In this document: positions 1,167-23,200 of the stretch, piece after piece
How the letters are laid out: the number at the start of each line of letters is the position of its first letter
Position numbering within the stretch: the stretch's first letter is position 1
DNA from: an uncultured Candidatus Saccharibacteria bacterium
Lineage (GTDB): Bacteria; Patescibacteriota; Minisyncoccia; UBA6257; 1-14-0-10-40-38
Direction: 5' to 3'
DNA length: 33,036 nt
Assembly (NCBI GenBank): GCA_964434715.1
Contig: CAYSWC010000001.1
Span: 1 to 33,036 of the forward strand
The notes under the pieces: generated by a model
What the model saw: only the letters and a program-made list of their open reading frames with translations
What the model was told of the DNA's origin: nothing
Database searches by the model: none
Made by a program: the position numbers and the translations under genes

Positions 1167-4100
1167 TTAGAATCGCCCGCCACTCGGCGGCTCTTGTTTC
1201 AGCCACGGAATAAAATTCACATTATCCGAAACCGGATTGCCCAAGCCGCCGGGGTTTAAGGTCGGATGATAAGGGCCGGTGCGATGCCCCCACCAGTTGT
1301 TTTGGGCAACTACGGAATTTGAACTTGAGTTGTAAATTCCATAAGCGTTATTCCGGTAAATCGAGCTTCGGGAAACGGTGGTGGTGCCTGAAATCTGATA
1401 GATGCCATATTGGTTGCTACTAATTATAGTATTGTCAATATTAACATTCCCACCAAAATTTCTAATCATTCCATCAGCTGGTTGCCAATAGGCACCGCCG
1501 TATCTTAAAACCACATTGTTGAAGAGACCAGTGGAGTTAGTGCCGAAATAAATGCCATGATAATCTCCAGGAGCGGGAGCAGTGGCATTGCCGTCGCCGT
1601 TAGTGTCGCCGCCAACGGAGTCGTCTTTTAAAGAGGTGAAGTAGATTTTGTTGGTGGGGGTAGTTTGAGCGTTGAGGCTGCCTAAGATATTGATGATTCC
1701 GCTAGCAGGAAACTTAACTATGGCTCCGGGTTGGATAGTCAGACTTTTGCCTGAAGCAACAGCAAAGTAGGAAGGAATAAAAGGCACGCCGGGATTCCAG
1801 ATTTGATTGGTTGGTGAAATACCAGATATGAAAAACCCTTGAGCGGTAACTCCGCTGGTAGTATTGCCGGAGTTGATAAAATCAATAGAGCCGTAGGAGA
1901 GATAGGCGTCGCCAGAACTGTTGTTAGAAAAAGTGTTAAAAGTGAGGGCAAGAGTAAGGAAGCCGCCGCCGCCCGTAGATGCGCCTAAACCAAACGAACC
2001 ATTGCCACTAAAATTGCTGTTGGCGATGCTAACACTTGTAGTGGCGAGAGAAAGAATATTGATGCCATCTCTAACGTTGTTGCTGATTAAAGAAGAATTA
2101 ATGGTTAATTGACCTATTGATTGAGTTGTATAGATAAAGATCCCAAAATATCCGCTATCGGTGATCTGACTGTTTATGACACTAACATTTCCCCCAAAGT
2201 TGTTAATCATCCCATAGCCATTTAAATAATAGTTCCCGCCGTAGCGCAAGACTGAATGGGCAAAATTGCCGGTAGAATCTTGTTGAAACCTGATGCCGTG
2301 ATAATCTTCGGGGGCGGGGGTGGTAGCACTGCCATCGCCATTGGTATCGCCGCCCACAGAATCGTCAGTAAAAGAAGTAAAATAGATTTTTTTGTCTGGA
2401 GTTCCTTGGGCGTTCAACGTTCCAGAGACATCAATAAAAGCATCTGAATATAGACTGCTGGGAATGATTTTTACGATAGTGCCGGGTTGAATAGTTAAAG
2501 TCCTGTCTTGATTTACTGTAAAGACATAAATAACGAAGGGAACTCCTGGGTTCCAAACTTGATCTGTTGGCGAAGTTCCGCTTATATAGAAACCTTGCTT
2601 AGCGGTACCGCTGGTGGTGTTGTCGGAATTTATAAAATTTACATCGCCGTTAATACTAGCGTCGCCCGCCTTATTATTAGAAAAAGTGTTAAAAGTGAGG
2701 GCAAGAGTAAGGAAGCCGCCGCCGCCCGTAGATGCGCCTAAACCAAACGAACCATTGCCACTAAAATTGCTGTTGGCGATGCTAACACTTGTAGTGGCGA
2801 GAGAAAGAATATTGATGCCATCTCTAACGTTGTTGCTGATTAAAGAAGAATTAATGGTTAATTGACCTATTGATTGAGTTGTATAGATAAAAATCCCAAA
2901 ATATCCGCTATCGGTGATCTGACTGTCTATGACACTCACATTGCCCCCAAAATTATTAATCATTCCGTAGCCATACCAATAATAGTTGCCGCCGTAGCGC
3001 AAGACTGAATGGGCAAAATTGCCGGTAGAACCTTGTTGAAACCTGATGCCGTGATAATCATCGGGGGCAGGGGTGGTAGCGCTGCCATCGCCATTGGTAT
3101 CACCGCCCACGGTATCATCTTTAAGGGAAGTGAAGTAAATTTTGTTAGCCGATGTTCCTTGTGCATTTAACATTCCGTAAACCTCCATATAAGAATCACT
3201 GTAAAAAGTGCTGGGCATAAATTTTACCACTACACCGGGTTCGATTGTTAAAGTCACCCCGGGATTAACGGTTACGGAAGATTGGATAACGTAAACATTG
3301 CCGGCAGTCCAAGTCGTGTCTTGGGTAATAGTGCCGGAGACGTAAACTACGAAATAGTTTTTAGAAAGCACTAGAGTACCTTCACAAGTATCGCACAAAG
3401 ATTGATCATCCATCGGGTCTGGTGGAACAGAACTACTATTTTGATATAGGACGAAGTGCAGATGGTTCCCCGTTGCGTCTCCAGTCATACCGTTATAACC
3501 AATAATCTGTCCTTTCGAAATTTGCTGACCAACCTGTATGCCGGGTAAGATTATGGGGTCATACTTTAAATGTGCATATCTACTTGTAATTCCGCTACCA
3601 TGATCTAACAAAACAAAGTAGCCGTACCCCGACAGAGGATTCTGCCCGATAAAAGCTATGGACCCGGAATTCACTGCACGTATTGCTTTGCCATCGTCGT
3701 TTTCTATCTGGAGACAATTCTCGTCGAAAACACCATTGAAATCGATAGCATAAAAATCGTTACCTGTATGACCTGGGGGGTCGCCATAATAAGAACCGCC
3801 GCCATAACATCCACTCCCAGCAATCCATCTATAACCACCATTCCAAGGCGCTGATACTGGAATAGGTGCAGCGTAGGCTATCAATGTTTTAAGAAAACTT
3901 TGTGTTTGCTTATTAAAAAAGTTTAAGCTTAAAAATTTCTCAATTAGATCAGGTAGTTCTTTTTCATAATTACGGTCGTCTTCTTTTGTTTCCTCAAAAA
4001 AAACAGCAAACCCCAAAATAAGGTTGGGGGCTTGAAGGTAAATATTAATACGGGAGGGTGTTAGGTTAATGCTGGAATGACTATATAAATATCGCTCTCC

Positions 4101-4475
4101 AATGAAATCTTGAAATTGAATAGGTTTCTTATCAATTAAGAAATATGGATCTTCTCCAGAATATCTTGCTAACCAATCGCTAATCGGAAGATTTTCAAAA
4201 TTATCTAAAACAGCTATAGCGAGCTTTGCGCCTTTTTTTAAATGATTGACGTTCTCTGAAGAAACCTTGGGTGTTACCCAGCTCATATAGTTTTCGGCTT
4301 CTTCAGCTTTAATCCATTCTCCTTGAATATTAATGGGATATCTAAATCTATTATTAGAGGCTACAACGCTTTGCTCTTTAGCGTCGCTAACCATAAAGTA
4401 CCAAGATCCGAAACTGATAAAAACTATAATGAAAATTGCAGGATATTTTTTCATGGATAAGGATGATAGCTTCAT
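1167..4475 (-). CDS. Exported M23 family peptidase with an N-terminal domain paralogous to the upstream gene and C-terminal right-handed beta-helix repeats
   Basis: N-terminal hydrophobic segment; M23 motifs HTGNDFYAIDF, YAHL, GMTG and HLHF; three repeats of LTIxPGxxVK...IYFTSxxDDxVGGDTNGDG; terminal AQNNWWG. Confidence 0.85.
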   Translation of the reverse strand: MKLSSLSMKKYPAIFIIVFISFGSWYFMVSDAKEQSVVASNNRFRYPINIQGEWIKAEEAENYMSWVTPKVSSENVNHLKKGAKLAIAVLDNFENLPISDWLARYSGEDPYFLIDKKPIQFQDFIGERYLYSHSSINLTPSRINIYLQAPNLILGFAVFFEETKEDDRNYEKELPDLIEKFLSLNFFNKQTQSFLKTLIAYAAPIPVSAPWNGGYRWIAGSGCYGGGSYYGDPPGHTGNDFYAIDFNGVFDENCLQIENDDGKAIRAVNSGSIAFIGQNPLSGYGYFVLLDHGSGITSRYAHLKYDPIILPGIQVGQQISKGQIIGYNGMTGDATGNHLHFVLYQNSSSVPPDPMDDQSLCDTCEGTLVLSKNYFVVYVSGTITQDTTWTAGNVYVIQSSVTVNPGVTLTIEPGVVVKFMPSTFYSDSYMEVYGMLNAQGTSANKIYFTSLKDDTVGGDTNGDGSATTPAPDDYHGIRFQQGSTGNFAHSVLRYGGNYYWYGYGMINNFGGNVSVIDSQITDSGYFGIFIYTTQSIGQLTINSSLISNNVRDGINILSLATTSVSIANSNFSGNGSFGLGASTGGGGFLTLALTFNTFSNNKAGDASINGDVNFINSDNTTSGTAKQGFYISGTSPTDQVWNPGVPFVIYVFTVNQDRTLTIQPGTIVKIIPSSLYSDAFIDVSGTLNAQGTPDKKIYFTSFTDDSVGGDTNGDGSATTPAPEDYHGIRFQQDSTGNFAHSVLRYGGNYYLNGYGMINNFGGNVSVINSQITDSGYFGIFIYTTQSIGQLTINSSLISNNVRDGINILSLATTSVSIANSNFSGNGSFGLGASTGGGGFLTLALTFNTFSNNSSGDAYLSYGSIDFINSGNTTSGVTAQGFFISGISPTNQIWNPGVPFIPSYFAVASGKSLTIQPGAIVKFPASGIINILGSLNAQTTPTNKIYFTSLKDDSVGGDTNGDGNATAPAPGDYHGIYFGTNSTGLFNNVVLRYGGAYWQPADGMIRNFGGNVNIDNTIISSNQYGIYQISGTTTVSRSSIYRNNAYGIYNSSSNSVVAQNNWWGHRTGPYHPTLNPGGLGNPVSDNVNFIPWLKQEPPSGGRF
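1924..3110. repeat. Intragenic tandem duplication with a 753-bp period
   Basis: About 1924-2137 appears identical to about 2677-2890, and similarity continues with substitutions to about 2357/3110. The duplication is in frame (251 aa). Confidence 0.9.
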
Positions 4476-4489
4476 TAATTGCTCAAATA

Positions 4490-5035
4490 CTAAAAATTTC
4501 TTTCTATAAAGGAGGCGGCTAGATCGGTTAACTGCTTATTATAATTCTTATCTGCTCCGCTATAAAATACCACAAAACCCAAAAGTCGATCTGGGGTTTG
4601 GATGTGTATGTTAATACGCGAGGGTGTTTGAGTACCGAAGTCGTTGTAAATGTATTTCTCACCATTGAAATTAGCAATCTGAATTAGTTCTTTACTGATT
4701 AGCGAATCGGGGTTGTCTCCTGAATATCTTTCTAACCATTCACTAATTGAAAGATTTTCTGGATTCTGGGATATTGTAATTGCAAACTTGGCGCCTTGTT
4801 TTAAATGACCATCGTCTGAGCGATTAGCTTCTGGCGTGAACCAGCTAATAGAATTACTCGTTTCTGCTGCTTTAATCCATTCATTAGGAACCGTTACCTG
4901 ATAAAGAAATCCCCCGCTTATGTCGCTATGTAATGATCGCTCATCCGGCTGATTATTGGCCGGTTTAGCGAAAAATAATAAATAGCCAACTATGACCAGA
5001 ATAATGACGATGATTAGTATTATTAATTTCTTCAT
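4490..5035 (-). CDS. Membrane-anchored hypothetical protein (possibly PsbP-like fold), paralog of the N-terminal domain of the downstream M23 protein
   Basis: MKK plus hydrophobic anchor. Shares EWIKA, HLKxGAK, ENLxISxWLxRYSG and TPSRINI with residues ~50-160 of 1167..4475. Confidence 0.8.
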   Translation of the reverse strand: MKKLIILIIVIILVIVGYLLFFAKPANNQPDERSLHSDISGGFLYQVTVPNEWIKAAETSNSISWFTPEANRSDDGHLKQGAKFAITISQNPENLSISEWLERYSGDNPDSLISKELIQIANFNGEKYIYNDFGTQTPSRINIHIQTPDRLLGFVVFYSGADKNYNKQLTDLAASFIERNF

Positions 5036-5072
5036 CTTAGCTAGAACTGGGAGACGAACTAGATAGATGGTT

Positions 5073-5435
5073 CTAACGCTGTTGAGATTCTAATTTGACA
5101 ACTCGCTCTTCCAGCCTTCTAACTTGATTGGCAAGCACTATCAACTCTTGTTCCTGCTTTTTCATAAGTGTTATAAAATCATCCAACTTAGCGAATAGCT
5201 GGCTCACATTATCCTTCATCCATTTTACGTCTGCTTTTAGTTCGGTCACGCCAAGCTCAAGCCTATCAAGCCGAGAATCAACCTTATCAAGTCGGGAGTC
5301 AACCCTATCAAGCCGGGAGTCAACCTTATCAAGCCGCGTGTTGACTGTCTTAAAATCCTCTTGAACCGCCTCCGCAAACGGCTCAAGCGCCTCAACAACG
5401 GCTTCCTTTATGTCTTCTTTGGTTACTTCAGCCAT
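5073..5435 (-). CDS. Coiled-coil hypothetical protein with heptad repeats
   Basis: RLD(K/R)VDS heptads repeated; amphipathic helical composition throughout. Confidence 0.8.
   Translation of the reverse strand: MAEVTKEDIKEAVVEALEPFAEAVQEDFKTVNTRLDKVDSRLDRVDSRLDKVDSRLDRLELGVTELKADVKWMKDNVSQLFAKLDDFITLMKKQEQELIVLANQVRRLEERVVKLESQQR
5257..5340. repeat. Four 21-bp tandem repeats encoding heptads
   Basis: tcaagcctatcaagccgagaa / tcaaccttatcaagtcgggag / tcaaccctatcaagccgggag / tcaaccttatcaagccgcgtg. Confidence 0.85.
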
Positions 5436-5465: not shown

Positions 5466-7139
5466 TCAACTATTCCTTAACCTCACAAAAAACCGCGATC
5501 CCTGTCCTTCTCCCTCACTTTCTGCCCAAATTTCGCCGTGATGGGCGGTAACGATTTCCCGGGCGATGTAGAGGCCAAGGCCGGTGCCTTGAATTTCTTT
5601 CTTCACGCTCTCATCGCGGGTAAATCGCTCAAAAGCTTGGCTTTGCATCTCTTTGGACATTCCCCGACCGGTATCCTCGACTGTGATAAGCACAGTTTCT
5701 GGTTTCTGGTTGCTGGTTGTTGGTCGTTGGTCAACGGTTACTTTAACGTAACCGCGATCTGTATATTTAATGGCGTTATCAATGATATTTTGAATGACCT
5801 GCCGGATTTTTTCCGGATCAGCTTTGATTTTGATGGACGGCAGGGGCTGGTTGGTGATGGATAGTTTAGCATCAGCGCTTATTCTAATGTTCTTAAGAAC
5901 ATTAGAATAAGCTTGGAACTGCAAATCCAAACCTTTAGCCGCTGCCAAGGGTTTAAATTCCTCAACCATGCTAGAGAGCAAGGCCACAATATCAACCTCT
6001 TCAAACTTATATTCCATCTTGCCCTCTTCAATTTTTCTTAAATCCAAAAGATTATTGACCAAGACAATAGTCCGGTCAGCAGACTCTTTAATCTTCTTGG
6101 CTTTGGCTTTGGCCTCATCCGAGACCGGCCCGTAAGTGCCGTCAGAGATCAGCTCGGCAAAACCCTTAATCACCGCCATCGGCGACTTCACCTGATGTGA
6201 GGCAAAACTCAAAAACTCGGATTTTAACTGATCTAACTCCCGAAGTCTTGCATTCGCCGCTTCCAATTCTTTTGTCAATTTCTCTAATCTTTCCCGCTGT
6301 TCAACTTCTTTGAGTACGCTTTTTATTAGAAAAATACCAAAAGTAAAGAAAAGTATAAATATGACGATTCTAAGTATCAACTCAAAAGTATTTTTCGCTA
6401 CGAAAATCTCGAAAAGCGAAACAGACAGAATTACAAAAGTAAGGATCTCAGTCGCGATTGCTTTAACATTCAATAAATGATGACGTAAAATTGCATAGGC
6501 CATACCTACAAATGTTGGCAACATGAAAAGGGGCCCATAGATTATGAATGATGTATCTTTTAAGAAAATTACGAAAAGAAAATTGGTTAATATCAATAGG
6601 AAATAACTAAGAGAAACTCCAATAAGCATGGACCTCCATTGCATTCTTTCCAGGGTTTGTGCTTTTATAAATTTTCTTACAATCAAGATGATTCCAGATA
6701 TTAAAGAAATTACGACGACTAAGGCGAACAAAGGCATTAATGGTCCGGCTATTGGGACTATTCGATCATCAATCGCTTCAATCCTTGTAAAGACATAGGG
6801 CGAGACAGTTGCACCCATCGTTATAAGTAAAAGTAATAAGCTTGCTATAAATAAAGTTCTTTTAATCACTAACCCTCTATTGGGAAAATTGTAAGTAAAG
6901 ATAAAGAACAATACTGCATGGGGTGTAGCGAAAAATAACACAAGTCTAATCCAAAATAGTACTTGTGGTGGATTGATGTTTAAAGAAAAATAATTGGCGA
7001 TAGCCCACAATACAGTTGCGAGGGCGATAAGAAAAAAAAGGATATTACTGATGCTTTTCCGGTCGTGAAAATAAACGACAATACCAATGAAAAAAATCCC
7101 GAAGGCACTTACGAGTGTAATAGCTAAATCTGTAGGCAT
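5466..7139 (-). CDS. Sensor histidine kinase with a multi-TM N-terminal domain (HisKA_7TM-like), HisKA and HATPase_c
   Basis: About 280-aa hydrophobic N-terminus; H-box FLSFASHQVKSP; N-box NIIDNAIKYT; G1 EDTGRGM; G2 GTGLGLYIA. Confidence 0.95.
   Translation of the reverse strand: MPTDLAITLVSAFGIFFIGIVVYFHDRKSISNILFFLIALATVLWAIANYFSLNINPPQVLFWIRLVLFFATPHAVLFFIFTYNFPNRGLVIKRTLFIASLLLLLITMGATVSPYVFTRIEAIDDRIVPIAGPLMPLFALVVVISLISGIILIVRKFIKAQTLERMQWRSMLIGVSLSYFLLILTNFLFVIFLKDTSFIIYGPLFMLPTFVGMAYAILRHHLLNVKAIATEILTFVILSVSLFEIFVAKNTFELILRIVIFILFFTFGIFLIKSVLKEVEQRERLEKLTKELEAANARLRELDQLKSEFLSFASHQVKSPMAVIKGFAELISDGTYGPVSDEAKAKAKKIKESADRTIVLVNNLLDLRKIEEGKMEYKFEEVDIVALLSSMVEEFKPLAAAKGLDLQFQAYSNVLKNIRISADAKLSITNQPLPSIKIKADPEKIRQVIQNIIDNAIKYTDRGYVKVTVDQRPTTSNQKPETVLITVEDTGRGMSKEMQSQAFERFTRDESVKKEIQGTGLGLYIAREIVTAHHGEIWAESEGEGQGSRFFVRLRNS
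5696..5732. repeat. Five heptamer tandem repeats in frame within the HATPase domain
   Basis: tttctgg-tttctgg-ttgctgg-ttgttgg-tcgttgg; encodes DQRPTTSNQKPE. Confidence 0.8.
5877..5912. repeat. Perfect 36-bp palindrome inside the histidine kinase CDS
   Basis: gcttattctaatgttctt|aagaacattagaataagc; encodes AYSNVLKNIRIS. Confidence 0.92.
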
Positions 7140-7146
7140 TATTTAA

Positions 7147-7157
7147 ATTATACCACA
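7147..7157 (-). promoter_or_regulatory. Extended -10 promoter of the histidine kinase (leaderless)
   Basis: TGTGGTATAAT ends 7 nt before the ATG at 7139. Confidence 0.6.
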
Positions 7158-7175
7158 AAACTCGGTTTGGGTTAT

Positions 7176-7215
7176 AAAAAGGCGGCTTTTGGCCACCCTA
7201 AGATTTTGGAGGGTT
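7176..7215. repeat. ~40-bp imperfect direct repeat, copy 1 (copy 2 at 18160-18198)
   Basis: aaaaaggcggcttttggccaccctaagattttggagggtt vs aaaaaggcggctttgggccgcc-tagggtttttgaggatt; 33/40 identical by manual alignment. Confidence 0.7.
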
Positions 7216-7224
7216 GGCGAGAAG

Positions 7225-7254
7225 TTGACGATTGAGTCTAATCAAGCTTATAAT
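7225..7254 (+). promoter_or_regulatory. Sigma70 promoter of the Gre-family gene
   Basis: TTGACG, 18 bp, TATAAT; RBS AAAGGAG before 7324. Confidence 0.55.
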
Positions 7255-7323
7255 TAATATTAGCAACTTAATACTAACAAACCAGGTGCAATAGCCCGGC
7301 TCACCAAGAGAAAGGAGTGAGAA

Positions 7324-7803
7324 ATGCCTAACTATTTTACCCCTAAGGATTTTGCCAAGTTACAAGAGAAAATCCGCAAGACTGAAGCTAAACTAGATGA
7401 AGCGAAACTACAGATAGGAGAAGCCTGTAACCAAGGATCGGATACTTTCCATGATAACTTTCCTTACGAAGAGGCTTTGCGGCAAGTAGCTTTTTGGTCT
7501 CGTAGGTTACAGGAATTCATAGATCTCCAGTGTGATGCTCAAATCGTTTATCCTAGCGAAGAGACAATAAGAGTTGCTATTAGTACAATAGTTACAATAG
7601 AAGATGTAGCTACACACGAGGAGGAAACCTATAGAATTGCTAGCTTCGGGATAGCGATTTACTCTGACGAGAAAGGTGTAGTCTCTTATAACTCCCCCCT
7701 AGGGCAATGCCTCCTGGGTGCGTGGAAAGGTGACATAAGAACCTTACGTCTTGGTGAAAAGATTCGTCAGCTAAGGGTGAAAAAAATCCAAAGCGGTGCT
7801 TAA
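7324..7803 (+). CDS. GreA/GreB family transcription factor with an atypical tip
   Basis: N-terminal coiled coil (YFTPKDFAKLQEK...DTFHDNFPYEEA) and C-terminal VSYNSPLGQCLLG motif. Confidence 0.85.
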   Translation: MPNYFTPKDFAKLQEKIRKTEAKLDEAKLQIGEACNQGSDTFHDNFPYEEALRQVAFWSRRLQEFIDLQCDAQIVYPSEETIRVAISTIVTIEDVATHEEETYRIASFGIAIYSDEKGVVSYNSPLGQCLLGAWKGDIRTLRLGEKIRQLRVKKIQSGA

Positions 7804-7929: not shown

Positions 7930-7958
7930 TTTACAATTGAAAATAGACATGGTATTCT
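7930..7958 (+). promoter_or_regulatory. Promoter of the CYTH-CDA-HD operon
   Basis: TTTACA, 17 bp, TGgTATTCT (extended -10), about 30 nt before the ATG. Confidence 0.5.
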
Positions 7959-7987: not shown

Positions 7988-8560
7988 ATGCTGAACAAAT
8001 TAAAAAATCAAAAGAATATCGAGATCGAATATCGCTCAAGATTTAGTGAGGTCGATTATAAAAGACTCTTTGATTTCCTTACTCATCATGCCAAAAATCT
8101 TGGACAAGACGATAAGGATGTATTTTTTTTCATTATGCCAGATAAACTTCTCAAGGTGGTAAATGAGATTGCAAAAAAGAAAGCGAAGATTGTTCTTAAA
8201 CTTAATAAAATCGGTAAAGGAAGCGATTTTGAAGAATTGGAAATACCAATTCGGCAGGATAGCGTAATGCCGGCAGTAAGATTATTCAAACACCTGGAAC
8301 TGACTAATAATATCATGCATTCATTTCAAAAGAGGCATAATTTCTTTTATAGGGGGGTGGAAATAGCGCTTAAGCATAGTGATGAATGGGACTATCATGC
8401 TGAGTTAGAAACTGTTATCAGTAATACTAAAGATAAAAAAGATGCGATTGAGAAAATAGCTAAAGTTACGAAAGAATTAGATATACGCCTGATGTCAGAG
8501 AAGGAGTTACGAGAATTTACCCGTAAAGCTGAGATTAAATACAGGAGAAAAAGAATTTGA
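7988..8560 (+). CDS. CYTH-domain (triphosphate tunnel metalloenzyme) protein
   Basis: N-terminal EIEYR (ExExK-like), FEELEI, QKRHNF and HAELE motifs. Confidence 0.85.
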   Translation: MLNKLKNQKNIEIEYRSRFSEVDYKRLFDFLTHHAKNLGQDDKDVFFFIMPDKLLKVVNEIAKKKAKIVLKLNKIGKGSDFEELEIPIRQDSVMPAVRLFKHLELTNNIMHSFQKRHNFFYRGVEIALKHSDEWDYHAELETVISNTKDKKDAIEKIAKVTKELDIRLMSEKELREFTRKAEIKYRRKRI

Positions 8561-8570
8561 TAGAGCAACT

Positions 8571-9032
8571 ATGAAATTTGTAAATTATAGTTCGCTAAAA
8601 TCGCGGGAGAAAAGATTAATGAAAAAGGCTTTTGAGGCCGCAAAACGTTCTGTGACCTCTGCTAAACATGAGGTTGGATGCGCTATTTTAGACAACGAAG
8701 GTAACATATTCCTAGGCGCAACCAATGCAAGATCCCGAGCAATTGGATCAACTTGTGCAGAACGAATGGCGATGGATCAACTATATTTCCAGAGGGGAGG
8801 GGCACCAATATTTCTAGCTCTCGTTGGTAGATTTAATAGAAAGGGGTGGAAAGAAAGCTACATATGTACGCCTTGCGGTGTATGTCTAGAAATGTTTTCC
8901 GAAGTGATGCGTGATTTTCAAAAAAGGGATTTTAATTTTATCTGTCCTGCTTGGAACAAATCAAAAATTTTAAAAGTTTCCTTAAGCGAACTTTATCCTC
9001 AAATTGGCAAAGGTGATTGGGAAAGATTATAA
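8571..9032 (+). CDS. Cytidine deaminase family protein
   Basis: VGCAIL...GNIFLGATN, TCAERMA and TPCGVC zinc motifs (three-Cys type). Confidence 0.9.
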   Translation: MKFVNYSSLKSREKRLMKKAFEAAKRSVTSAKHEVGCAILDNEGNIFLGATNARSRAIGSTCAERMAMDQLYFQRGGAPIFLALVGRFNRKGWKESYICTPCGVCLEMFSEVMRDFQKRDFNFICPAWNKSKILKVSLSELYPQIGKGDWERL

Positions 9033-9044
9033 TAACCTGCTAAA

Positions 9045-9788
9045 ATGGTAAGTCTCGTCGATTTCGCAAAGAAAAATGAATTACCAAGTATTCAGTTTAT
9101 GGATCCGGCTACCTTAGATTGGATTAACTCTAACAGACCAGATGAATTAAAAAATTCTATTAAAAGATATTGTCCGCGGCCAGACCTTATACCTCAAATT
9201 GTAAAGTTATTACCTCTAAATGAATGGTTCTTTAATAACGAAATAATTGATTCCATCCATGGCTTAAGACATCTTTTAAGGGTAGCTTTTCTTGGAGCGA
9301 CACTGGATTTAGAAATAAAGCTTTCTCAAAAAAATATCATAAACATAATAATTGCGGCGCATCTACACGATATAAGGAGAATAGATGATAAAGGCGATCC
9401 TGGTCATGGCGAAAGAGCTGCCGTATGGTTTAAAGATAATTTAACAAAAATTACCGAATATTTCTCTCTAAATCTTGAAAGTGAAGATATTGAAGAAATA
9501 TTCTTTATGATCAGGTATCATGAAAATCCGTATACGGAAATATCGCATAAAGATGCTTATAAAAAATACAAGACTGTGATAGATATTATGAAAACAGCAG
9601 ACGCTCTCGATCGATATCGTCAACCAAAATTAAAATGGTGGATTAGTGATAATTATCTTGCATTAAAACCTAGCCTTTCAATGAAAAAATTCGCTTATGA
9701 CCTAGTAGTTGGAAGCGAGAGATTAAAATTGGATGGATTAGATAATACATCAAGTGTTTTAGATGCATTTAAAAAACTTCTATGCTAG
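9045..9788 (+). CDS. HD-domain metal-dependent phosphohydrolase
   Basis: IHGLRHLLRV, HLHDIRR, GHGERAA, RYHE, TADALDRYR. Confidence 0.88.
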   Translation: MVSLVDFAKKNELPSIQFMDPATLDWINSNRPDELKNSIKRYCPRPDLIPQIVKLLPLNEWFFNNEIIDSIHGLRHLLRVAFLGATLDLEIKLSQKNIINIIIAAHLHDIRRIDDKGDPGHGERAAVWFKDNLTKITEYFSLNLESEDIEEIFFMIRYHENPYTEISHKDAYKKYKTVIDIMKTADALDRYRQPKLKWWISDNYLALKPSLSMKKFAYDLVVGSERLKLDGLDNTSSVLDAFKKLLC

Positions 9789-11185
9789 AAAATTTACTTA
9801 ATAAATGGAGTGATGTTCACGTTTTCTATAATACCTTCACACACTCCTTGTCTCGTAATAAAACACGTATTGTTAACGACGAATTCCTCTGGAGAAATAA
9901 AATCTTTCAAGCAACTCATGGTCGTCTCTTAATCGAGAATAATTTCTTTAAATCTCTTAAGCAAAATTCGAAAATCTTTTTAGCCCACATTACTCCTAAT
10001 TTACATAATATTCTTGAAAAAAATCATCTCTTCCCAAGCAGTGGATGCCTTGTTGGAAGTATCTATTGCACCCCAATAGATCTTTCTGACGGAAAACTTA
10101 GACTCCACAATCTTGGCGAGTTTATTATAAATCATGAAATGCCAAAATTCTTAGGAAAAGAGTTAATTGCTAAGAATCAGCTCGGAATACTCGTGATTAG
10201 AATAGACTTGCCATCGCAAGCCCGAAATAACTTAATTGGAATTGACTATCTGCGGCTTGGGGAACTACATCTAGAAACATATAAAAATCTAGAATATCTC
10301 CTTTCTCTGGGCGAACGACATTTATTGGAGGATCTTTGTGCTGAACGTATTAGGAAGGCATCTGATTTTTTGAGTTTGTGTAATCGTAAATATTGGCTAA
10401 ATGAAAATGTTGATTCTGTAAACTTTCTCGATATGATGGTTAAGACTACAGAATATTTACCTATTCTCGGTTATTTTTACTTCGAAACTCTGGCTGAATT
10501 CTTAATGCTTTATCAAGATTGTAAAGAGGCAACTAACTACGATTCAATTGGAGAGTTTTGGACTCCGAGCCATAAGAGGATGGTGTTTTCTTTATTCCCA
10601 CAACTTCCAAGTAATTTCAGCCTTCGCCTTTTTAAACCCAAATTCCTAGATGTTGTTTCGTATTTGAAGCGTTATGGATTTTTTACGCATTTTAATACTG
10701 ATGAAATATCAAAATATCTATGTGATAGACTGGCTTTCTTAATAAACGCTCGATTCTTTAAAGAAGATGCAAAACTCATAGAATGGCATAAATTAGAATG
10801 GAAGTTTGACAATCTTACCCAATTTTTTGGTCCGCTACTAGGACACCTTATTCATCGCGAACTTCGTAATTTCGGGAGATATCCTCATTTCTATTTCTAT
10901 TTTGATCAGTTTAAAGCACTACAAATCTGGAATTATTGGAACTATATGCATATCGCAATCCCCTTTAATGGTGTCTTTCCAAAGGGCGAAGTTGGTATTA
11001 ACCCCGCCTATCCCGATCTTCGATATCGAATCTACCAAGGTAAACCCTACGAGAAAAACGGTTATATTTATCTTGAAATTGGGAAAGAATTGGATATCGA
11101 AATTGCTCCACAACTTATTAATTTGAGATTCACTACAATGCGTAATAAAGACATGCCCAGTGCCCGAGCTAATCTTCTTGAGTAA
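9782..11185 (+). CDS. Hypothetical protein, candidate ADP-ribosyltransferase-fold (H-Y-E type) enzyme with a large insert
   Basis: Long ORF overlapping the HD gene end. Pattern LAHIT..LHNIL...LFPS...GSIYCTP...ILVIRID...KGEVGINP. The CDS is well supported; the fold assignment is inference. Confidence 0.6.
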   Translation: MLENLLNKWSDVHVFYNTFTHSLSRNKTRIVNDEFLWRNKIFQATHGRLLIENNFFKSLKQNSKIFLAHITPNLHNILEKNHLFPSSGCLVGSIYCTPIDLSDGKLRLHNLGEFIINHEMPKFLGKELIAKNQLGILVIRIDLPSQARNNLIGIDYLRLGELHLETYKNLEYLLSLGERHLLEDLCAERIRKASDFLSLCNRKYWLNENVDSVNFLDMMVKTTEYLPILGYFYFETLAEFLMLYQDCKEATNYDSIGEFWTPSHKRMVFSLFPQLPSNFSLRLFKPKFLDVVSYLKRYGFFTHFNTDEISKYLCDRLAFLINARFFKEDAKLIEWHKLEWKFDNLTQFFGPLLGHLIHRELRNFGRYPHFYFYFDQFKALQIWNYWNYMHIAIPFNGVFPKGEVGINPAYPDLRYRIYQGKPYEKNGYIYLEIGKELDIEIAPQLINLRFTTMRNKDMPSARANLLE

Positions 11186-11197
11186 AAGTTAAATATT

Positions 11198-11956
11198 ATG
11201 AAAGGTAAAAAAAATCAAGAAAGTAAAGCTCTTAAAAAGATCGAGAATAATTTTGCCCTTTTTAAAAAACATGAAAACATTACTCATGGCTTTGGTAGAG
11301 TAGTCCGGAAACTTGAAAAGGAGATAACAGTACTACGCAGTCATTTAGAAGGCAAAGGCAATTGGGAAAAACAGAGAAAACACTTAGGCTCATCTGCCTT
11401 TGAATGTATACAAATCGGTGGTGGTCAGCATTACCTCCAAGATTTTCTAAATATCGATATTTTCCCTCCAGCCGATCTTATCTACGATGTTAGACAGGGC
11501 TTGCCCCTACCTGATAATTGTTGCACCTTTCTATTCTGTGAACATTTACTTGAGCATATTGATTACCCTGTTTCTATAGAAAAATTTTTATCAGAGTGTT
11601 TTCGGGTACTTAAAAAAGGTGGTCGTTTTGTGATTGGTGTACCAGATGGAGAGTTGGTTTTAAAAAATTATTGTAAAAATGATCAACTTTTTAAGGAAGA
11701 AATCATTAAGCGCTGGTACGGAAGACGCAAAATATCAAATTACATAAACAGTTATATAGACCTTGTTAATTATCATTTCAGGGATATGGATGACGATAAA
11801 ATTTATAATCCTCATTTGTGGGCGTATGATTATAAGAATTTATACTCATTGTTGAAAAAGGCGAGGTTTTCAAACATCAAAAAATGGAGTTTTAACAAAC
11901 TCATCGCAAATCCCAAGAGAAAATGGGGGAGTCTTTATGTCGTCGTAAATAAATAA
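11198..11956 (+). CDS. Class I SAM-dependent methyltransferase (type 11-like)
   Basis: IQIGGG..., LNIDI, DVRQGLPLPD, EHLLEHI, ECFRVLKKGG. Confidence 0.88.
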   Translation: MKGKKNQESKALKKIENNFALFKKHENITHGFGRVVRKLEKEITVLRSHLEGKGNWEKQRKHLGSSAFECIQIGGGQHYLQDFLNIDIFPPADLIYDVRQGLPLPDNCCTFLFCEHLLEHIDYPVSIEKFLSECFRVLKKGGRFVIGVPDGELVLKNYCKNDQLFKEEIIKRWYGRRKISNYINSYIDLVNYHFRDMDDDKIYNPHLWAYDYKNLYSLLKKARFSNIKKWSFNKLIANPKRKWGSLYVVVNK

Positions 11957-11976
11957 GGTCAAATTATTGTAGTAAA

Positions 11977-12618
11977 ATGGTGAGAATTTTTCGCATAAAT
12001 AAAGAACTATTTACCACTATTTTCCGCACTAATCATTGGGGATCAAAAGAATCTGTATCTGGTCCCGGTGCGGAAATGAAGCCGACGAGAAAAATAAGAA
12101 GAGTACTCCCCAAAATAATTAAGCGTTATCATATTCGAAGTATGCTTGATATTCCTTGCGGTGATTTTAATTGGATGAAAGCTGTAGATCTTCGAAGATT
12201 AGATGAATATACCGGTGCCGATATTGTGTCCGAACTAATTGCGTCAAATATTAAAAAATATAGCGACGGACAGAAAAAATTTATCGAGTTAGATATTATA
12301 AACAATCCCTTACCAAGGGTTGACCTTATTTTCTGTAGAGATTGTTTTGTGCATTTAAGTAATAAAGACATCTGCAAGGCTTTAAAAAATATAAAGAAAA
12401 GCGGTTCCGCATTTCTTCTAACTACTACGTTTATCCGTGAAGACAAAAATAAAGACACCAGGGAAGGTAAGTGGAGGCCTATCAATTTGAATATAAAACC
12501 TTTTAATTTAGCTCCTTTTATTGAATACATTAATACAGACTTTAGGGATGGAGGGAGAAATCATCCTGGGAATGGAATAGCAATTTGGAAAATCTCCGAT
12601 TTACCTGATAACTATTAA
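11977..12618 (+). CDS. Class I SAM-dependent methyltransferase
   Basis: WGSKESVSGPG, LDIPCGDFNWM, YTGADIV, DLIFCRDCFVHL. Confidence 0.88.
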   Translation: MVRIFRINKELFTTIFRTNHWGSKESVSGPGAEMKPTRKIRRVLPKIIKRYHIRSMLDIPCGDFNWMKAVDLRRLDEYTGADIVSELIASNIKKYSDGQKKFIELDIINNPLPRVDLIFCRDCFVHLSNKDICKALKNIKKSGSAFLLTTTFIREDKNKDTREGKWRPINLNIKPFNLAPFIEYINTDFRDGGRNHPGNGIAIWKISDLPDNY

Positions 12619-12678
12619 CTAACACATTTTTTCTAGGGTCACTTCCCGGACAATTTTAATAAGAAAAAGGAGGTTCTC

Positions 12679-13269
12679 TCACAACCTCCTTTTAATTATT
12701 TGGGCAAGCTGTTCGGGGGCTTTTTGCGGCATACCGTCAATATTCTCGATGTGATGGGAAGGGATTCTAAATGATTCAGACGCCTTCAACATCACCTCAG
12801 TAGACATAAGTTGTGCTCTTTTTATAAAATCAATCTTTTCTCGCAAAGATCTCTGTTCATTACTAAATAGACTACGGTTGATCCTTTTATTGATCAATTC
12901 ATCATAAAGAATCCGCCGCACGATTGATTCTGGGTTACCAATCAAAAGTATAAGTACTCTACAATAACTATACCATAGTCCATAGCTGGGAGCAATCTTT
13001 CCATTAAACACTTTGACGTAATGGGCTGTAACTATGGTTGTTTCTACCCCACTTTCTTTGCTTAAAGCACAGAAAAGATCTGTAAGAGCTCTTTCTTTCA
13101 CTTTCTTTGGAAGAATTCTTAGCTTGACGTAATCGCCGTCAGCGATACCAAGCCACTTCATGAGCTCTGAGGAACCGTCCAGTACACGCACCGATAACCT
13201 TTTCCGAAGCGCTTGTGCAATTGAGGTCTTACCAACGCCATTAACGCCGCCTAGAAAAAGCAAACCCAT
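12679..13269 (-). CDS. P-loop nucleoside monophosphate kinase-like protein (archaeal adenylate kinase-like)
   Basis: LFLGGVNGVGKTS, VTAHY, SIVRRI. Start moved to ATG 13269, which follows RBS AGGAGGA. Confidence 0.8.
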   Translation of the reverse strand: MGLLFLGGVNGVGKTSIAQALRKRLSVRVLDGSSELMKWLGIADGDYVKLRILPKKVKERALTDLFCALSKESGVETTIVTAHYVKVFNGKIAPSYGLWYSYCRVLILLIGNPESIVRRILYDELINKRINRSLFSNEQRSLREKIDFIKRAQLMSTEVMLKASESFRIPSHHIENIDGMPQKAPEQLAQIIKRRL

Positions 13270-13394
13270 TTTATCCTCCTTTTTGTAAATGTTCGTATAA
13301 ACTAATATAGCACGGAGTTCTAAGCATTGCAAATCAAGATTATTTCCTTATCTACTTTTATTTGCTGCCGGGTTTGAATTAACCCCTAAAGGAG

Positions 13395-14480
13395 TTACTG
13401 AATTATCGAATCTAATTTTAAGCTATATCTGCCTGAAGGTGTTTTTTTGCCGGTTGAGATTTGACGAATGAGATAGCACAAAACAGCGCCGCGCAGAAAG
13501 GATGATTCGGCCAACTGCGGTATACCGGCGAGTTTTGAACCAACGAGCAAAAATGACTTCTTTAATCTTTGGGTAAGATATTTCGTCCCCATAAAGTCTC
13601 GCGCCAAAAGCATTTTATTCTTAAAAGGCAAAGTTTTCAGTTTATCGCTCTTTGCAATATCAATTATGGATTGCTTAAGATATCCGCCTAAAAGCGGCAG
13701 CTCTGGATTCTGGTCAAATCTTTCAATATCAATAATCACATTCGGGCCGTTGCCGGTAACCATCACAACCGGGATTCGATACTGCCTGGCTTTTTCTCTT
13801 ATTAAAATTTTAAGCCTTAAATTATCCATCTCTTCAATTAATACATCTGTCCTGGGCTTTAAAAGGAATTCTTCTAGACTATCTGGTTTTATGCCGTCTC
13901 TAAAAACTTCTATTTTTGCGAAAGGATTAATTTCGTAAACTTGCCGCGCGGAAAGCACTGCCTTATTTAAACCGAGATCAGTTATGCTTGCTCTAAATCT
14001 ATTAAAATTGGTAAGCGATAAAACATCATTATCAGCAAATTTCATCTCAAGCCCTCCGCCTTCTAAGGCAAGGCACACTGCCGCCGGGTTGCCCACATTT
14101 AATCCCGCGATGCCGATTCTAAATTGAGCGAACTTTTTTTGGTCAGATGGTAAAACTAAATTTTCATTTCTTGAAGTCTTAAGGCGAAGATAGCTATCTT
14201 TTTCTAGTACATGAACTAAAGACGACTGCCATGAATAGTAAATCCATTTTCCCTGTTTCGGATCATTGCCATACTTTCTAGGTTCTCGCGTAAGAAGTTT
14301 AGGATTTTTAACTAAATCCAATTCTCTAAGCTGTTCAGAAAATTCATCTACGACATTTACAATCTTTTTCTGCTTTAATAAATTTCTTACCTTACTAAGA
14401 TCGTTAACTTTTTTAAAATCAAAAATCAACGGTTTATAAGAGTTATCGCGTGAATTTAGAAATTTACCAAAAATTTTCAT
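13395..14480 (-). CDS. ThiF/E1-like adenylyltransferase, Rv1355c-like, lacking the fused nitroreductase domain
   Basis: WIYYSW...VHVL...SRNENL N-terminal signature, IGIAGLNVG, ADNDVLSLTNFNR, NKAVLSARQVYEINP, EEMD, GIPQLA. Confidence 0.88.
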   Translation of the reverse strand: MKIFGKFLNSRDNSYKPLIFDFKKVNDLSKVRNLLKQKKIVNVVDEFSEQLRELDLVKNPKLLTREPRKYGNDPKQGKWIYYSWQSSLVHVLEKDSYLRLKTSRNENLVLPSDQKKFAQFRIGIAGLNVGNPAAVCLALEGGGLEMKFADNDVLSLTNFNRFRASITDLGLNKAVLSARQVYEINPFAKIEVFRDGIKPDSLEEFLLKPRTDVLIEEMDNLRLKILIREKARQYRIPVVMVTGNGPNVIIDIERFDQNPELPLLGGYLKQSIIDIAKSDKLKTLPFKNKMLLARDFMGTKYLTQRLKKSFLLVGSKLAGIPQLAESSFLRGAVLCYLIRQISTGKKTPSGRYSLKLDSIIQ

Positions 14481-15538
14481 GGTATCAGCTTTGCCTCAAC
14501 CGGATGACGCAAATTCGGCCTCTGTTCAAAATTCATATAACCGACGCAAAATAAAAGCTGTGCTACGAGGCCAGAATTTATAACCTTTTGCACTTGCTTG
14601 TATAAATCACCTATCTCTATTGAAGCTACAAAAATTGAGGTTTTGAGTTCCTTGGAATTTAATTCCAACGTTATCCGCTCAAATAATCTCCCCACCTCTA
14701 GCCAGCTTAAAGGAGAATTCTCTTTGGAGCTGATGATTAGGACGAGCGGTGCGGAACTGATACTTTTGTAATTAAGCGCTCCCACCGCTTTTCCGATATT
14801 AAAAAAACGGACTAGAGTAGGAAAAATCAGAGAAATCAAAGCCGGCATTCTTAAAGAATAACCGGGTATGCCCTCTCTCTTTTTTGAAAAACTGCTGTTC
14901 ATCCAAGAGGACATCTCTTTTCTAAAATTAGAGCTTTGGTAGGCAATTCTTAAACCTTCGGCGGTGAGTGTCGCTAATTTATTTATTTTTTCCTTATCGT
15001 GAACTAAATCGAGCCGTAATTCAGGAAATTTATTATCGAGCGACTGAATTTTTTTAATAATTTCTGATTCAACTGGTTTCTGCTCAAAAATACCTCTGAC
15101 ATTAACTCTTTTTGGTACGGCATCCAAAATATCTGCTAACTCTTTGCTAATTTGTATATCTTTTCTCTCTAAATCTCCGAAAGTAACTTCGGCAACTAAA
15201 TTATCCTTTAAGATATAATTCAAATTTCTAAAAACTTTAAAATAACTTGCAGCCACAATAATATTTTCCAAAAGACAGCCAAAACTTATATAGAGATCTC
15301 GCTTAATTGGATCGGCTTCCTTGATTGTATATTTCTCGGAGTCATAAAAAATCTTGCAAGAGTCATTTTCTATTTTAAAAAGCCAAGGTTGGCTATTATG
15401 CGTTGAAGGGGCTAAAATGCCGTATCGTAAAATAAACTTTATTTTCTCAAAAGGAGCCTTGAGTTTGAAAAAATCACCCTTATTTATATTCCGAAGTTCA
15501 AAATCTAGATTGGACATTAATCTTATTTCTTTACCCAT
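14477..15538 (-). CDS. Acg-type nitroreductase family FMN oxidoreductase
   Basis: LAPSTHNSQPWLF, DPIKRDLYISFGCLLEN, KRVNVR, EVGRLFER. Confidence 0.88.
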   Translation of the reverse strand: MGKEIRLMSNLDFELRNINKGDFFKLKAPFEKIKFILRYGILAPSTHNSQPWLFKIENDSCKIFYDSEKYTIKEADPIKRDLYISFGCLLENIIVAASYFKVFRNLNYILKDNLVAEVTFGDLERKDIQISKELADILDAVPKRVNVRGIFEQKPVESEIIKKIQSLDNKFPELRLDLVHDKEKINKLATLTAEGLRIAYQSSNFRKEMSSWMNSSFSKKREGIPGYSLRMPALISLIFPTLVRFFNIGKAVGALNYKSISSAPLVLIISSKENSPLSWLEVGRLFERITLELNSKELKTSIFVASIEIGDLYKQVQKVINSGLVAQLLFCVGYMNFEQRPNLRHPVEAKLIP

Positions 15539-17028
15539 TTTTGTTTGATGCCAGGTTTGAAGTGAAGCTGATGCTCGGCGGGCCAGAAAACGAGCTTGGG
15601 CAGGGCTCGCTCTTTTAAGAAGTTATAGAGTTCGCGGTATTCCGAGTTTTTAAGCCGGAGATTGGCAACGACCTGGCTCAAAAGTATCTTCTGAACTTTT
15701 TTGGGTATCTTGCGATGTTTGCGAAGTTCAAGATTGACTTCCAGATATTGATTTTGCCGACGATCGTATTTGGTAATCAGGGTAAGCTTTCCGGTAAGGT
15801 ACTTATTCATCGGCGGTTCAATTAAAACCTCGCGAATCGTCTCCGGATAAACTTGAAGACCATAAAGAGTCGTTGCCATATCAACTCGCTCATAGATATA
15901 GACGAAGGGTAATTTATATATAAAATTTGCTATGCCGTGTGCGCGCGCCGACTTAAAGAAATCAATGCCGTGATTTCGGCATTTCTCAATCGCTTCTTTT
16001 AAAGTAAGCACCCCGCCGTGATCCCCGATGCCGTAACGGATAAGCGGTATAGCATTATCGCCAGTAAGAAAAAGTTCCCCTCCCTGTTCATCAAAACTTA
16101 TGAAACGAGGAATATATTGGGCCAGCGTTGGAGTACGCTGGATTTGATGAAAAATATCGGCAAATAGACGCCAACGTCCCATGGCAAGCTGCCGAATCAA
16201 AATACTCGCCGGAGTCTCAAATGCCATCACGCCAATATCGGCGCTGCCGTATATATTCATGGTGTCAAGGAGAGGATTTGTTATATTGACATGTTTCGCT
16301 AGATAGTCACGGAATTTTTCGGTGAAGGCTTCAGCTGCAAAAATAAAGCGAATATTCAACTTCCGGATATTGATACCGTTATGCGGTGCCTCATCAATAA
16401 TATCCTTAAGAAACGGCGCGTAACCTACTAAAATAATCTCTTTGAAATGATTCCCGATCCGCCGTAAGGCATTAAAAATTTCACGCTTGTTAATGCCCGG
16501 CGTAAGTATAGAAACCGGATAGCCGGCCTCGCGCATAAACTCAAACGACTGATAAGTGATCACCCCGCCAATCCAAACACCCATCCCAAAACAAACCAAA
16601 ATAAGAGTTGGTCCCTGCACACTCTTCTCGCTATTCCGAAAAAAAAGCTCGTGCGTCACCGCTGCCTGCCAATCAACTCGATAATCGCGGGCAAAGTAGA
16701 AAGGTTCGCCGGTCGAGCCGGAAGTTGCGGTAAAAACAAGTGGATGCTTAAGCGTACCATCCCAGCAAAGTTTTTCGAACGGGTATTCGCGGAGATAATT
16801 TTTTTTACTGGTAGGCGGTACTAAACGAAGATCGCCTGAAGTCTTAATTTTATCGGGTTGAATCTTGTTTTTCTTCAAAAAATCGCGATAGGCCGGCACC
16901 CGGCGCGCCGCTTCGTGAAATAATTTTATCGGTCGCAACGCCTGCTCACGCAGCCAAAAAGACTCGGGTTTCCGGCGTATAAGCTGGATTACAGCATTGG
17001 TGGCTGTCTGAACCTGATTCACTTTCAT
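15523..17028 (-). CDS. Phenylacetate-CoA ligase (PaaK)-like adenylate-forming enzyme
   Basis: VPAYRDFL, TSGSTGEP, YGSAD and PLIRYGIGDHG adenylation motifs. Confidence 0.9.
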   Translation of the reverse strand: MKVNQVQTATNAVIQLIRRKPESFWLREQALRPIKLFHEAARRVPAYRDFLKKNKIQPDKIKTSGDLRLVPPTSKKNYLREYPFEKLCWDGTLKHPLVFTATSGSTGEPFYFARDYRVDWQAAVTHELFFRNSEKSVQGPTLILVCFGMGVWIGGVITYQSFEFMREAGYPVSILTPGINKREIFNALRRIGNHFKEIILVGYAPFLKDIIDEAPHNGINIRKLNIRFIFAAEAFTEKFRDYLAKHVNITNPLLDTMNIYGSADIGVMAFETPASILIRQLAMGRWRLFADIFHQIQRTPTLAQYIPRFISFDEQGGELFLTGDNAIPLIRYGIGDHGGVLTLKEAIEKCRNHGIDFFKSARAHGIANFIYKLPFVYIYERVDMATTLYGLQVYPETIREVLIEPPMNKYLTGKLTLITKYDRRQNQYLEVNLELRKHRKIPKKVQKILLSQVVANLRLKNSEYRELYNFLKERALPKLVFWPAEHQLHFKPGIKQKWVKK

Positions 17029-23130: not shown

Positions 23131-23200
23131 TGCTTTTCCTCCTTTCATCCTTAAAAGCACTCCCATTTCCGTGTTGATAAAGTGCTGTCCGCGTTTTCCT

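Follow-up and report, generated by a model that had tools for sequence, protein, structure and literature searches.

What a compact block of putative nucleotide-processing genes does in the genome of a tiny groundwater bacterium is the question raised by the stretch of DNA analysed here (the window), 33,036 nt from an uncultured Candidatus Saccharibacteria bacterium (GenBank assembly GCA_964434715.1, contig CAYSWC010000001.1), which is contig C1 of a 793-kb assembly (56 contigs, 86% complete). An initial annotation had read positions 7988-12618 as a six-gene operon, acquired horizontally, that makes or destroys a modified nucleotide. We find that the conserved unit is four genes and not six: a CYTH-like gene, a gene of the HD superfamily, an orphan gene (g4) and a methyltransferase gene (MT1). 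The reading that we favour, tentatively and with confidence that falls a little short of even, is that the block encodes a pathway for nucleotide tailoring that moves horizontally and would combine ribosyl transfer by an ADP-ribosyltransferase (ART)-like enzyme, phosphoester trimming by the HD and CYTH proteins, and O-methylation. The features of the locus are as follows.

7988-8560 (+): g1, CYTH / triphosphate-tunnel-like protein, 190 aa, core
8571-9032 (+): g2, zinc deaminase like cytidine deaminases (CDA) of the homotetrameric type, 153 aa, accessory
9045-9788 (+): g3, divergent HD phosphohydrolase, 247 aa, core, partner of g4
9782-11185 (+): g4, orphan protein, 467 aa, core
11198-11956 (+): g5 (MT1), class I S-adenosylmethionine methyltransferase of small-molecule type, 252 aa, core
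11977-12618 (+): g6 (MT2), second class I methyltransferase, 213 aa, accessory
7930-7958 (+): promoter-like site preceding g1, TTTACA-17-TATTCT with TG upstream, a consensus match only
12665-12693 (both strands): bidirectional terminator-like hairpin with an 11-bp stem and T-runs on both strands, shared with the convergent g7
12679-13332 (-): g7, convergent archaeal-type adenylate-kinase-like nucleoside monophosphate (NMP) kinase, by profile matches to PDB entries
7324-7803 (+): divergent GreA/Rnk-like paralogue (PF01272, 5.5e-13), possible accessory

Neighbourhoods were counted at 80 loci, out of 193 relatives of g4 in a one-genome-per-species scan; scanning genome contigs with the single g4 sequence found nothing, and it was an alignment-based scan that gave the 193. 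The 80 loci comprise 13 from Patescibacteria, two from DPANN archaea and 65 from Actinomycetota, and the counts at each were obtained by tblastn with the proteins of the window and later, for lineage-specific open reading frames (ORFs), by tblastn with reference ORFs. Present at all 80 is g4, with MT1 at 79 and g1 and g3 at 78 each; the two loci that have neither g1 nor g3 (L005 and L074) are both cut at a contig end. MT2 was found at 21 loci, g7 at 10, the CDA gene at 6, and the GreA-like gene and a neighbouring histidine kinase gene at one each. Because the gene arrangement recurs in 78 of the 80 related loci, it is not the product of chance, and the earlier supposition that these genes form a conserved pathway holds up. 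Its extent does not: two of the six genes are accessory at these frequencies, and g7, which lies just outside the annotated coordinates, accompanies the cluster at 10 of the 15 patescibacterial and archaeal loci and at none of the 65 actinobacterial ones. All four core proteins are 40-55% identical across phyla.

The block itself is of foreign origin. Its six plus-strand ORFs are spaced by 10, 12, -7 (an overlap), 12 and 20 nt behind the single promoter-like site, much as had first been described, and its guanine-plus-cytosine (GC) content of 0.345, against 0.4595 assembly-wide, is the lowest among 1166 segments of the same 4631-bp size (mean 0.460, standard deviation 0.028); the low-GC stretch continues to ~15.5 kb. 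Together with the failure to find g4 in 40 related genomes searched, this composition, which confirms the AT-richness, supports the horizontal acquisition that the initial annotation had proposed.

Around the core, the accessories vary with the host lineage. All six CDA-positive loci are patescibacterial, and the adenylate-kinase-like kinase, convergent in the window, lies mostly within the operon in Patescibacteria. Three patescibacterial loci carry ThyA-like ORFs (L003, L006, L010), two a TylF-type methyltransferase (L003, L006) and two an NDK gene (L003, L004); Ham1 occurs in L014. The actinobacterial form is fixed, consisting of a divergent HTH-NUDIX gene, NDK, a TPR-like protein, g1, g3, g4, sometimes MT2, and MT1; the HTH-NUDIX gene was found at 48 loci, NDK at 64 of the 65 and the 99-aa TPR-like protein at 64. 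The idea that this NDK merely marks an ordinary housekeeping ndk neighbourhood was ruled out, the flanks at L078 being a NUDIX gene and a DUF5655/NucS-like gene. In a quick IQ-TREE phylogeny of g4, from which eight of the 80 loci were omitted for incomplete ORFs, the Patescibacteria (14 rows including the window), the archaea (2) and the Actinomycetota (57) each formed one clade with support of 99-100 in the Shimodaira-Hasegawa-like approximate likelihood ratio test.

Some individual loci depart from the common arrangement. In L003, from a member of the Paceibacterota, two CYTH copies (6953-7522 and 12305-12853) and two NDK copies (5631-6119 and 13254-13880) lie around the cluster. L011 has, besides its intact g3-like HD gene, a 101-aa fragment of another (2792-3097) lying 4 kb upstream, and in L009 (6016-8001) the g3-like HD ORF is short (197 aa) and stands ~1.4 kb from g4 rather than abutting it, a spacing that may reflect an insertion or disruption.

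Within the core, the HD protein and g4 are the most closely coupled. In the window the two genes share 7 nt, and natural fusions of the two occur in both orders, HD+g4 in P0170 and P0196 and g4+HD in P0228, with the extra parts of P0170 and P0228 matching the window's g3 by BLASTP at 1e-32 and 5e-31. A g4 paralogue on a Streptomyces plasmid, 32% identical, likewise has a g3-like HD gene directly upstream. From the overlap, the fusions and this pairing we therefore take the HD-g4 pair as the minimal unit. A predicted complex of g4 and g3 (alignments A1 and A4) gave a score of 0.00 and a mark of 0.32, which is uninformative on binding either way. Looking with the window sequence for longer, fused relatives (819-2335 aa) gave none, a result that counts as weak evidence only.

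Searches with the g4 protein in Pfam, NCBIfam, PADLOC and PHROG gave no match, nor did the PDB by sequence or profile (profile E<=10), and the g4 family, which at E<=0.001 numbers 361 relatives in 90% identity clusters and 298 in 50% identity clusters, has no Pfam model, solved structure or name. The AF2 model is of good quality by its own measures (predicted local distance difference test, pLDDT, 88.1; predicted template-modelling score 0.89), and it weakly but consistently resembles ADP-ribosyltransferases. With VIA-align, run exhaustively, at least 29 of the 50 matches listed are ART-fold proteins: ParT at Z 4.1 (125 aa, root-mean-square deviation 4.1), MbcT at 4.0, RES proteins at 3.8 and 3.4, diphtheria-toxin relatives at 2.9-3.3 and PARPs at 2.0-2.7, all of the ART matches aligning to the same g4 residues, ~60-155 and 395-430. 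A second VIA search again brought up diphtheria toxin (Z 3.6), a RES protein (3.3) and PARP10 (2.0), and the Atlas leads, Arr and DarT at 0.84, are weak. The predicted architecture is an ART-like core in two parts (~60-155 and 395-430), separated by a helical insert of ~230 aa that would lie just before the strand carrying the glutamate. Of the label 'ART-like' in the initial annotation it is this weak structural support that stands, and support from sequence was not obtained.

The conservation of individual residues offers support for the ART reading that is independent of the structural matches. In 89 relatives of g4, which reach down to ~20% identity, E403 alone never varies; 20 positions, H69, T71 and Y95 among them, are retained in at least 90% of the sequences. 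The H-Y-E triad of ART enzymes is defined by a histidine on strand 1, a tyrosine on strand 2 and the catalytic glutamate on strand 5. H69, Y95 and E403 lie on or beside model strands 64-71, 94-102 and 404-406, in the strand order expected of such a triad, and may be regarded as a candidate catalytic triad.

The partners of g4 are more readily placed. By profile homology g1 belongs to the CYTH / triphosphate tunnel metalloenzymes: Pfam gives no match, the CYTH model itself included at E<=0.01, and a profile of 23 orthologues (A2) matches the CYTH-type PDB entries 2een (1.1e-7), 1yem (2.8e-7), 2dc4 (2.6e-6) and 2aca (0.015). Its invariant residues are E12, E14, R16, K71, R116, K129, E139 and E141, giving an N-terminal ExExR motif, with R16 where the CYTH ExExK has lysine, and a C-terminal ExE formed by E139 and E141. 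In g3, which matches PF01966 at 3.1e-6 (27.9 bits against a cut-off of 22), the H..HD..D ligands H72, H76, H108, D109, D186 and D189 are invariant, as are H121 and H159, which places it in the HD phosphohydrolase superfamily; the nearest PDB entries, 2pq7 (7e-4) and the HD-GYP protein 4mcw (1.9e-3), are only distant. MT1 matches PF08241 at 1.1e-8, the two methyltransferases matching PF08241 and PF13649, and its N6_N4_Mtase match reaches only 0.0061. The MT1 model (pLDDT 88) finds 1vlm (7e-8), CmoA, Coq5, RedM and CysG with Foldseek.

Among the accessories, g2 matches PF00383 at 1.5e-11 (44.5 bits against a cut-off of 25) and PDB entry 1r5t at 7.6e-8. Since its zinc motifs CAER and PCGVC are aligned but its score of 43.8 is far below the NCBIfam equivalog cut-off of 113.65 (TIGR01354), it is a member of the cytidine deaminase family but not necessarily an orthologue of Cdd. 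MT2 matches phrog_3382 at 1.9e-55 and is 40% identical to a methyltransferase of the Synechococcus phage NC_047713, where the homologue sits among glycosyltransferases, nucleotide-sugar epimerases and an aminotransferase. A g7 profile (A5) matches 1nks (1.8e-8) and 6ln3 (1.7e-7); judging from the alignment, which starts near an internal MGLLFLGG, the TTG start listed for this gene is probably too early. The domain calls made at the outset were in these respects sound, the CDA, HD and methyltransferase families by Pfam and the CYTH family by profile against solved structures.

The GreA-like gene just upstream shows a hairpin and T-run directly after its stop codon, which suggests from the sequence that it is transcribed apart from the operon. 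A GreA-like gene also follows MT1 in L002 (phmmer 6.1e-7), and such a neighbour may tie the system to RNA polymerase. Elsewhere in the genome, on contig C20, is a GreA copy that scores 85.2 bits, against 49.9 bits for that at 7324-7803. Among sequencing runs, three of DNA from a single groundwater study came up, one of which may be the source of the assembly, and none of RNA.

Because this four-gene set turns up in candidate-phyla bacteria, in tiny archaea and in Streptomyces alike, the operon probably makes a modified nucleotide. In the pathway that we favour, the catalytic heart would be g4, a new H-Y-E-type ART-fold enzyme with a helical substrate-binding insert, coupled to an HD phosphodiesterase. 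It would move an ADP-ribosyl group from NAD+, or from a related ribosyl-pyridinium or nucleotide donor, onto a nucleotide-like acceptor. The dimetal HD protein and the CYTH triphosphate-tunnel enzyme would then trim pyrophosphate or phosphates to the phosphoribosyl or ribosyl stage, and MT1, a methyltransferase of small-molecule or sugar type, together with MT2 if present, would O-methylate the product. The accessories (the adenylate-kinase-like NMP kinase, NDK, cytidine deaminase, ThyA-like, NUDIX and Ham1 proteins) would feed or re-phosphorylate the nucleotide.

The nucleotide theme in this proposal derives from g7, NDK, the HTH-NUDIX gene, the ThyA-like ORFs and Ham1, and the theme of sugar methylation from the phage glycan relative of MT2, the TylF-type methyltransferases and two further sources. 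Six actinobacterial plasmids and one provirus carry distant paralogues of g4 (28-32% identity), and the flanks examined carry GT2, GT4, nucleotide-sugar dehydrogenase, epimerase, TauD, NUDIX, dTMP kinase and methyltransferase genes; moreover, one protein of 4266 aa fuses a g4-like domain with epimerase, ROK, DHQS-like, HAD and phosphoribosyltransferase (PRTase) domains. The giant fusion P0259 has no g3-like HD domain by hhalign. These flanks, the 4266-aa fusion and the glycan-cluster relatives of MT2 point to sugar or ribose chemistry.

Several points weigh against the proposed pathway. The best Z of the g4 model, 4.1, is below the tool's guide, according to which a model with no match usually still attains a best Z of 7-8, so that the fold is assigned from the agreement among the matches and not from their score. 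Foldseek finds nothing for the same model at E<=0.001 in PDB or BFVD, the ART families of Pfam give no match to the 89 relatives with a limit as loose as E<=10, and the tentative placement of H69, Y95 and E403 on the triad rests on strand order. Among the partners, g1 could be a cyclase and not a hydrolase, and the structural neighbours of the MT1 model are generic and fix no substrate class. The neighbourhoods examined showed neither NAD-salvage nor macro-domain genes. A search of the window and six loci against Rfam at gathering thresholds found two tRNAs only and no riboswitch, and so gives no hint of a ligand. Finally, as the accessories vary by lineage, the acceptor may differ between lineages.

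Should g4 prove to be a transferase that depends on NAD+ and acts jointly with an HD phosphodiesterase, it would found a new branch of ADP-ribosyltransferases and would imply a modified nucleotide that mobile elements carry between very distant hosts. Members of the g4 family from ultra-small bacteria, from ultra-small archaea and from Streptomyces share 40-55% identity and keep company with the same three partners, and the Streptomyces copies make the system testable in culturable, genetically tractable strains. A bolder form of the same proposal, which we think unlikely, is that g4 and the HD protein open a new route to non-canonical nucleotides that arms chemical immunity in Patescibacteria, DPANN archaea and Streptomyces. 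Here g4 would put ADP-ribose from NAD+ on a base-like or phosphate acceptor, a transfer that would be expected to go with inversion as ART reactions do, and AMP would then be removed by the HD protein; phosphorylation by kinases would yield the triphosphate, whose hydroxyls would be capped by methyltransferases of sugar type. The resulting O-methyl-ribosyl nucleotide would hit the polymerases of phages or competitors, with the GreA-like factor rescuing the host RNA polymerase. Were this so, the outcome would be both a new ART clade and a new class of nucleotide-based immunity.

The contexts in which the cluster travels bear on both the favoured pathway and its strongest rival. In two IMG/VR proviruses from high-GC hosts (L089 and L090) the actinobacterial cluster is present in full and immediately precedes phage tail genes, the neighbours including Phage_TTP_16 matches at 4.5e-45 and 7.1e-44 and an HK97-gp10-like gene. 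A relaxase gene lies near 18 loci and a tRNA gene 1.5 kb downstream of the cluster in L078; in the window ARAGORN finds no tRNA gene. The case for mobility is made by these provirus copies, the relaxases and the tRNA gene, with the lowest GC in the genome and the failure to find g4 in the 40 relatives. Given the several contexts, the occurrence of the L089/L090 phage structural proteins at none of the 80 genome loci and the lack of a match to g4 in 50,697 sequenced phage records, the cluster therefore appears to be cargo of several kinds of element and not a phage core function. Since the module is carried by mobile elements, the most likely role of its product is in conflict or competition rather than in core metabolism.

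The position next to phage tail genes would also suit a system that modifies nucleic acid, in which g4 ADP-ribosylates a DNA base or the 5' end of RNA or DNA and so marks or protects the nucleic acid of the element itself; the HD, CYTH and NUDIX proteins would trim the adduct or prepare a triphosphate end and the methyltransferases would methylate the attached ribose, giving a hypermodified base or a cap-like end. A triphosphatase, a transferase and two methyltransferases would parallel capping, the ThyA-like, kinase, deaminase and NTP-hydrolase accessories resemble the sets with which phages modify DNA before replication, and a GreA-like paralogue adjoins the operon both in the window and in L002. 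However, the absence of g4 from the phage records and of the provirus structural proteins from the 80 loci speak against it. In addition, Pfam and NCBIfam recognise no nucleic-acid-binding domain on the core proteins, and MT1 resembles methyltransferases of small molecules or tRNA, not DNA. We consider this explanation unlikely, too.

The sugar chemistry that we read as nucleotide tailoring could instead belong to a secreted nucleoside-type natural product, for example a pyrimidine nucleoside with an O-methylated sugar that would be used in competition and for which the deaminase or NUDIX protein would provide self-resistance. The cassette is common in Streptomyces and Kitasatospora, and in Longispora an MFS transporter adjoins it. 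The ThyA- and CDA-like genes, with the nucleotide-sugar enzymes and glycosyltransferases beside the g4 paralogues, may be likened to peptidyl-nucleoside pathways, and the fusion of g4 to sugar-pathway domains in the 4266-aa protein fits with this. However, the same core is found in Patescibacteria genomes of ~0.8 Mb and in DPANN archaea, the Longispora transporter is the sole exporter among loci with scanned flanks, and the cluster also lies inside proviruses; we regard a secreted product as distinctly unlikely.

A signalling anti-phage system would turn the same proteins to another use, with the CYTH protein as a class IV-like cyclase, the HD protein resetting the signal and g4 as an ART/RES-like effector that would use up NAD+ and so halt growth upon infection. 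Among solved structures, g1 is indeed closest to CyaB-like CYTH proteins, including 2aca, which is titled 'putative adenylate cyclase'; the second-best PDB match of g3 is an HD-GYP phosphodiesterase, the best structural matches of g4 are the NAD+-consuming toxins ParT and MbcT and RES proteins, and the context is mobile and patchy. Such a system leaves no role for the universally conserved methyltransferase or for the kinases, an identity of 40-55% across phyla is unusual for sensor or effector proteins, and neither an antitoxin-like partner nor a recognisable sensor domain was found. PADLOC-DB 2.0, moreover, gives no family for g1, g2, g3 or g4, and for MT1 and MT2 only weak, generic methyltransferase matches (mad2, 7.7e-6 and 9.6e-4). 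We judge this explanation to be quite improbable, and the nucleotide-depleting defence that the initial annotation had also entertained received no specific support.

Ordinary salvage or house-cleaning of scavenged non-canonical nucleotides, in hosts that lack de novo synthesis, is very improbable: Patescibacteria depend on salvage, and CDA, the adenylate-kinase-like kinase, NDK, NUDIX, Ham1 and HD are classic salvage or sanitising families, but g4 was not found in the 40 related genomes and the block has the most foreign composition in its genome, the cluster is also found in Streptomyces, which have full de novo pathways, and the core includes a methyltransferase and an orphan enzyme without any salvage enzyme.

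The tailoring pathway preferred here can be compared with several known systems. The ART toxins (ParT, MbcT and RES proteins) and the H-Y-E ARTs of the diphtheria toxin and PARP type are the best structural matches to g4, over two shared segments, and in the model the best-kept His, Tyr and Glu of g4 occupy what appear to be equivalent strand positions; they differ in having no detectable sequence similarity to g4 and in lacking its ~230-aa helical insert before the Glu strand, and g4 has, instead of an antitoxin or translocation partner, the HD, CYTH and methyltransferase proteins. SidE may offer an analogy in coupling an ART-type step to a phosphodiesterase, as the HD+g4 fusions would; however, it acts on ubiquitin in eukaryotic hosts with other domains, and no homology is claimed. 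Prokaryotic viperin loci similarly set a nucleotide-modifying enzyme beside NMP/NDP kinases on mobile elements, but their chemistry is different, a radical-SAM domain is not present in the window cluster (Pfam), and PADLOC gives g1 to g4 no match.

Phage DNA hypermodification, with T4-type sets of dNTPase, hydroxymethylase, kinase, deaminase and glycosyltransferase, overlaps with the cluster in its accessories (NTP hydrolases, kinases, deaminase, ThyA-like enzymes and sugar-type methyltransferases), whereas the window cluster has no hydroxymethylase, the core families are others and g4 does not occur in the phage records. Pnkp-Hen1 RNA repair and mRNA capping of the triphosphate-tunnel type share with it the combination of kinase, phosphoesterase and methyltransferase, or of triphosphatase, transferase and methyltransferase, yet among the ten proteins scanned Pfam and NCBIfam give no ligase or guanylyltransferase domain and no Hen1-specific match. 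That the gene combination, which the initial annotation did not recognise as a named system, matches none agrees with the PADLOC result and with the parts of the full-text literature consulted, in which no description of this gene set was found, though older comparative genomics of NAD-utilising systems could hold one; in PMC9503650, a term look-up returned 0 occurrences of CYTH, HD phosphoesterase, methylase, novel ART and Patescibacteria.

Other parts of the window deserve brief mention. Within the same low-GC stretch (0.355-0.369), the minus strand at 13395-15538 holds two genes with a 4-nt overlap, one for a ThiF/E1-like protein (361 aa) and one for an Acg-type nitroreductase (353 aa). The first matches the N-terminal half of a 722-position model of the Rv1355c family (8.4e-86) and the second its C-terminal half (1.5e-18), so that the pair looks like two separate pieces of a protein that exists elsewhere as a fusion; with tblastn hits at 0 of the 80 related loci, it was ruled out as part of the system. 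Next to it, at the edge of the low-GC stretch, is a 501-aa ORF (15523-17028, minus strand) with no Pfam or PHROG match. On the other side of the block, the minus strand at 1167-5435 holds a gene for a protein of 1102 aa with an M23 peptidase domain and a right-handed beta-helix, then a 181-aa ORF for which nothing was matched, and then one of 120 aa that encodes a coiled coil and resembles XhlA and phage internal head proteins below threshold; these genes could be the remnant of a lysis or tail module.

Further downstream, at 22156-23232, a 160-aa ORF matches only the first 95 of the 304 positions of PF10017 (histidine-specific methyltransferase) and is overlapped by an opposite-strand ORF of 250 aa without a match; the former may be a gene fragment. 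The release-factor ORF at 25309-26073 matches the PCRF profile only from position 94 and looks N-terminally short, as would be expected if the gene is prfB with its programmed frameshift. Lastly, the ORF at 28797-30497 encodes a ThyX-type thymidylate synthase of 566 aa, whose best Thy1 match covers residues 336-526 and which has two matched stretches, suggesting either a long N-terminal part that the match does not explain or a duplicated domain.

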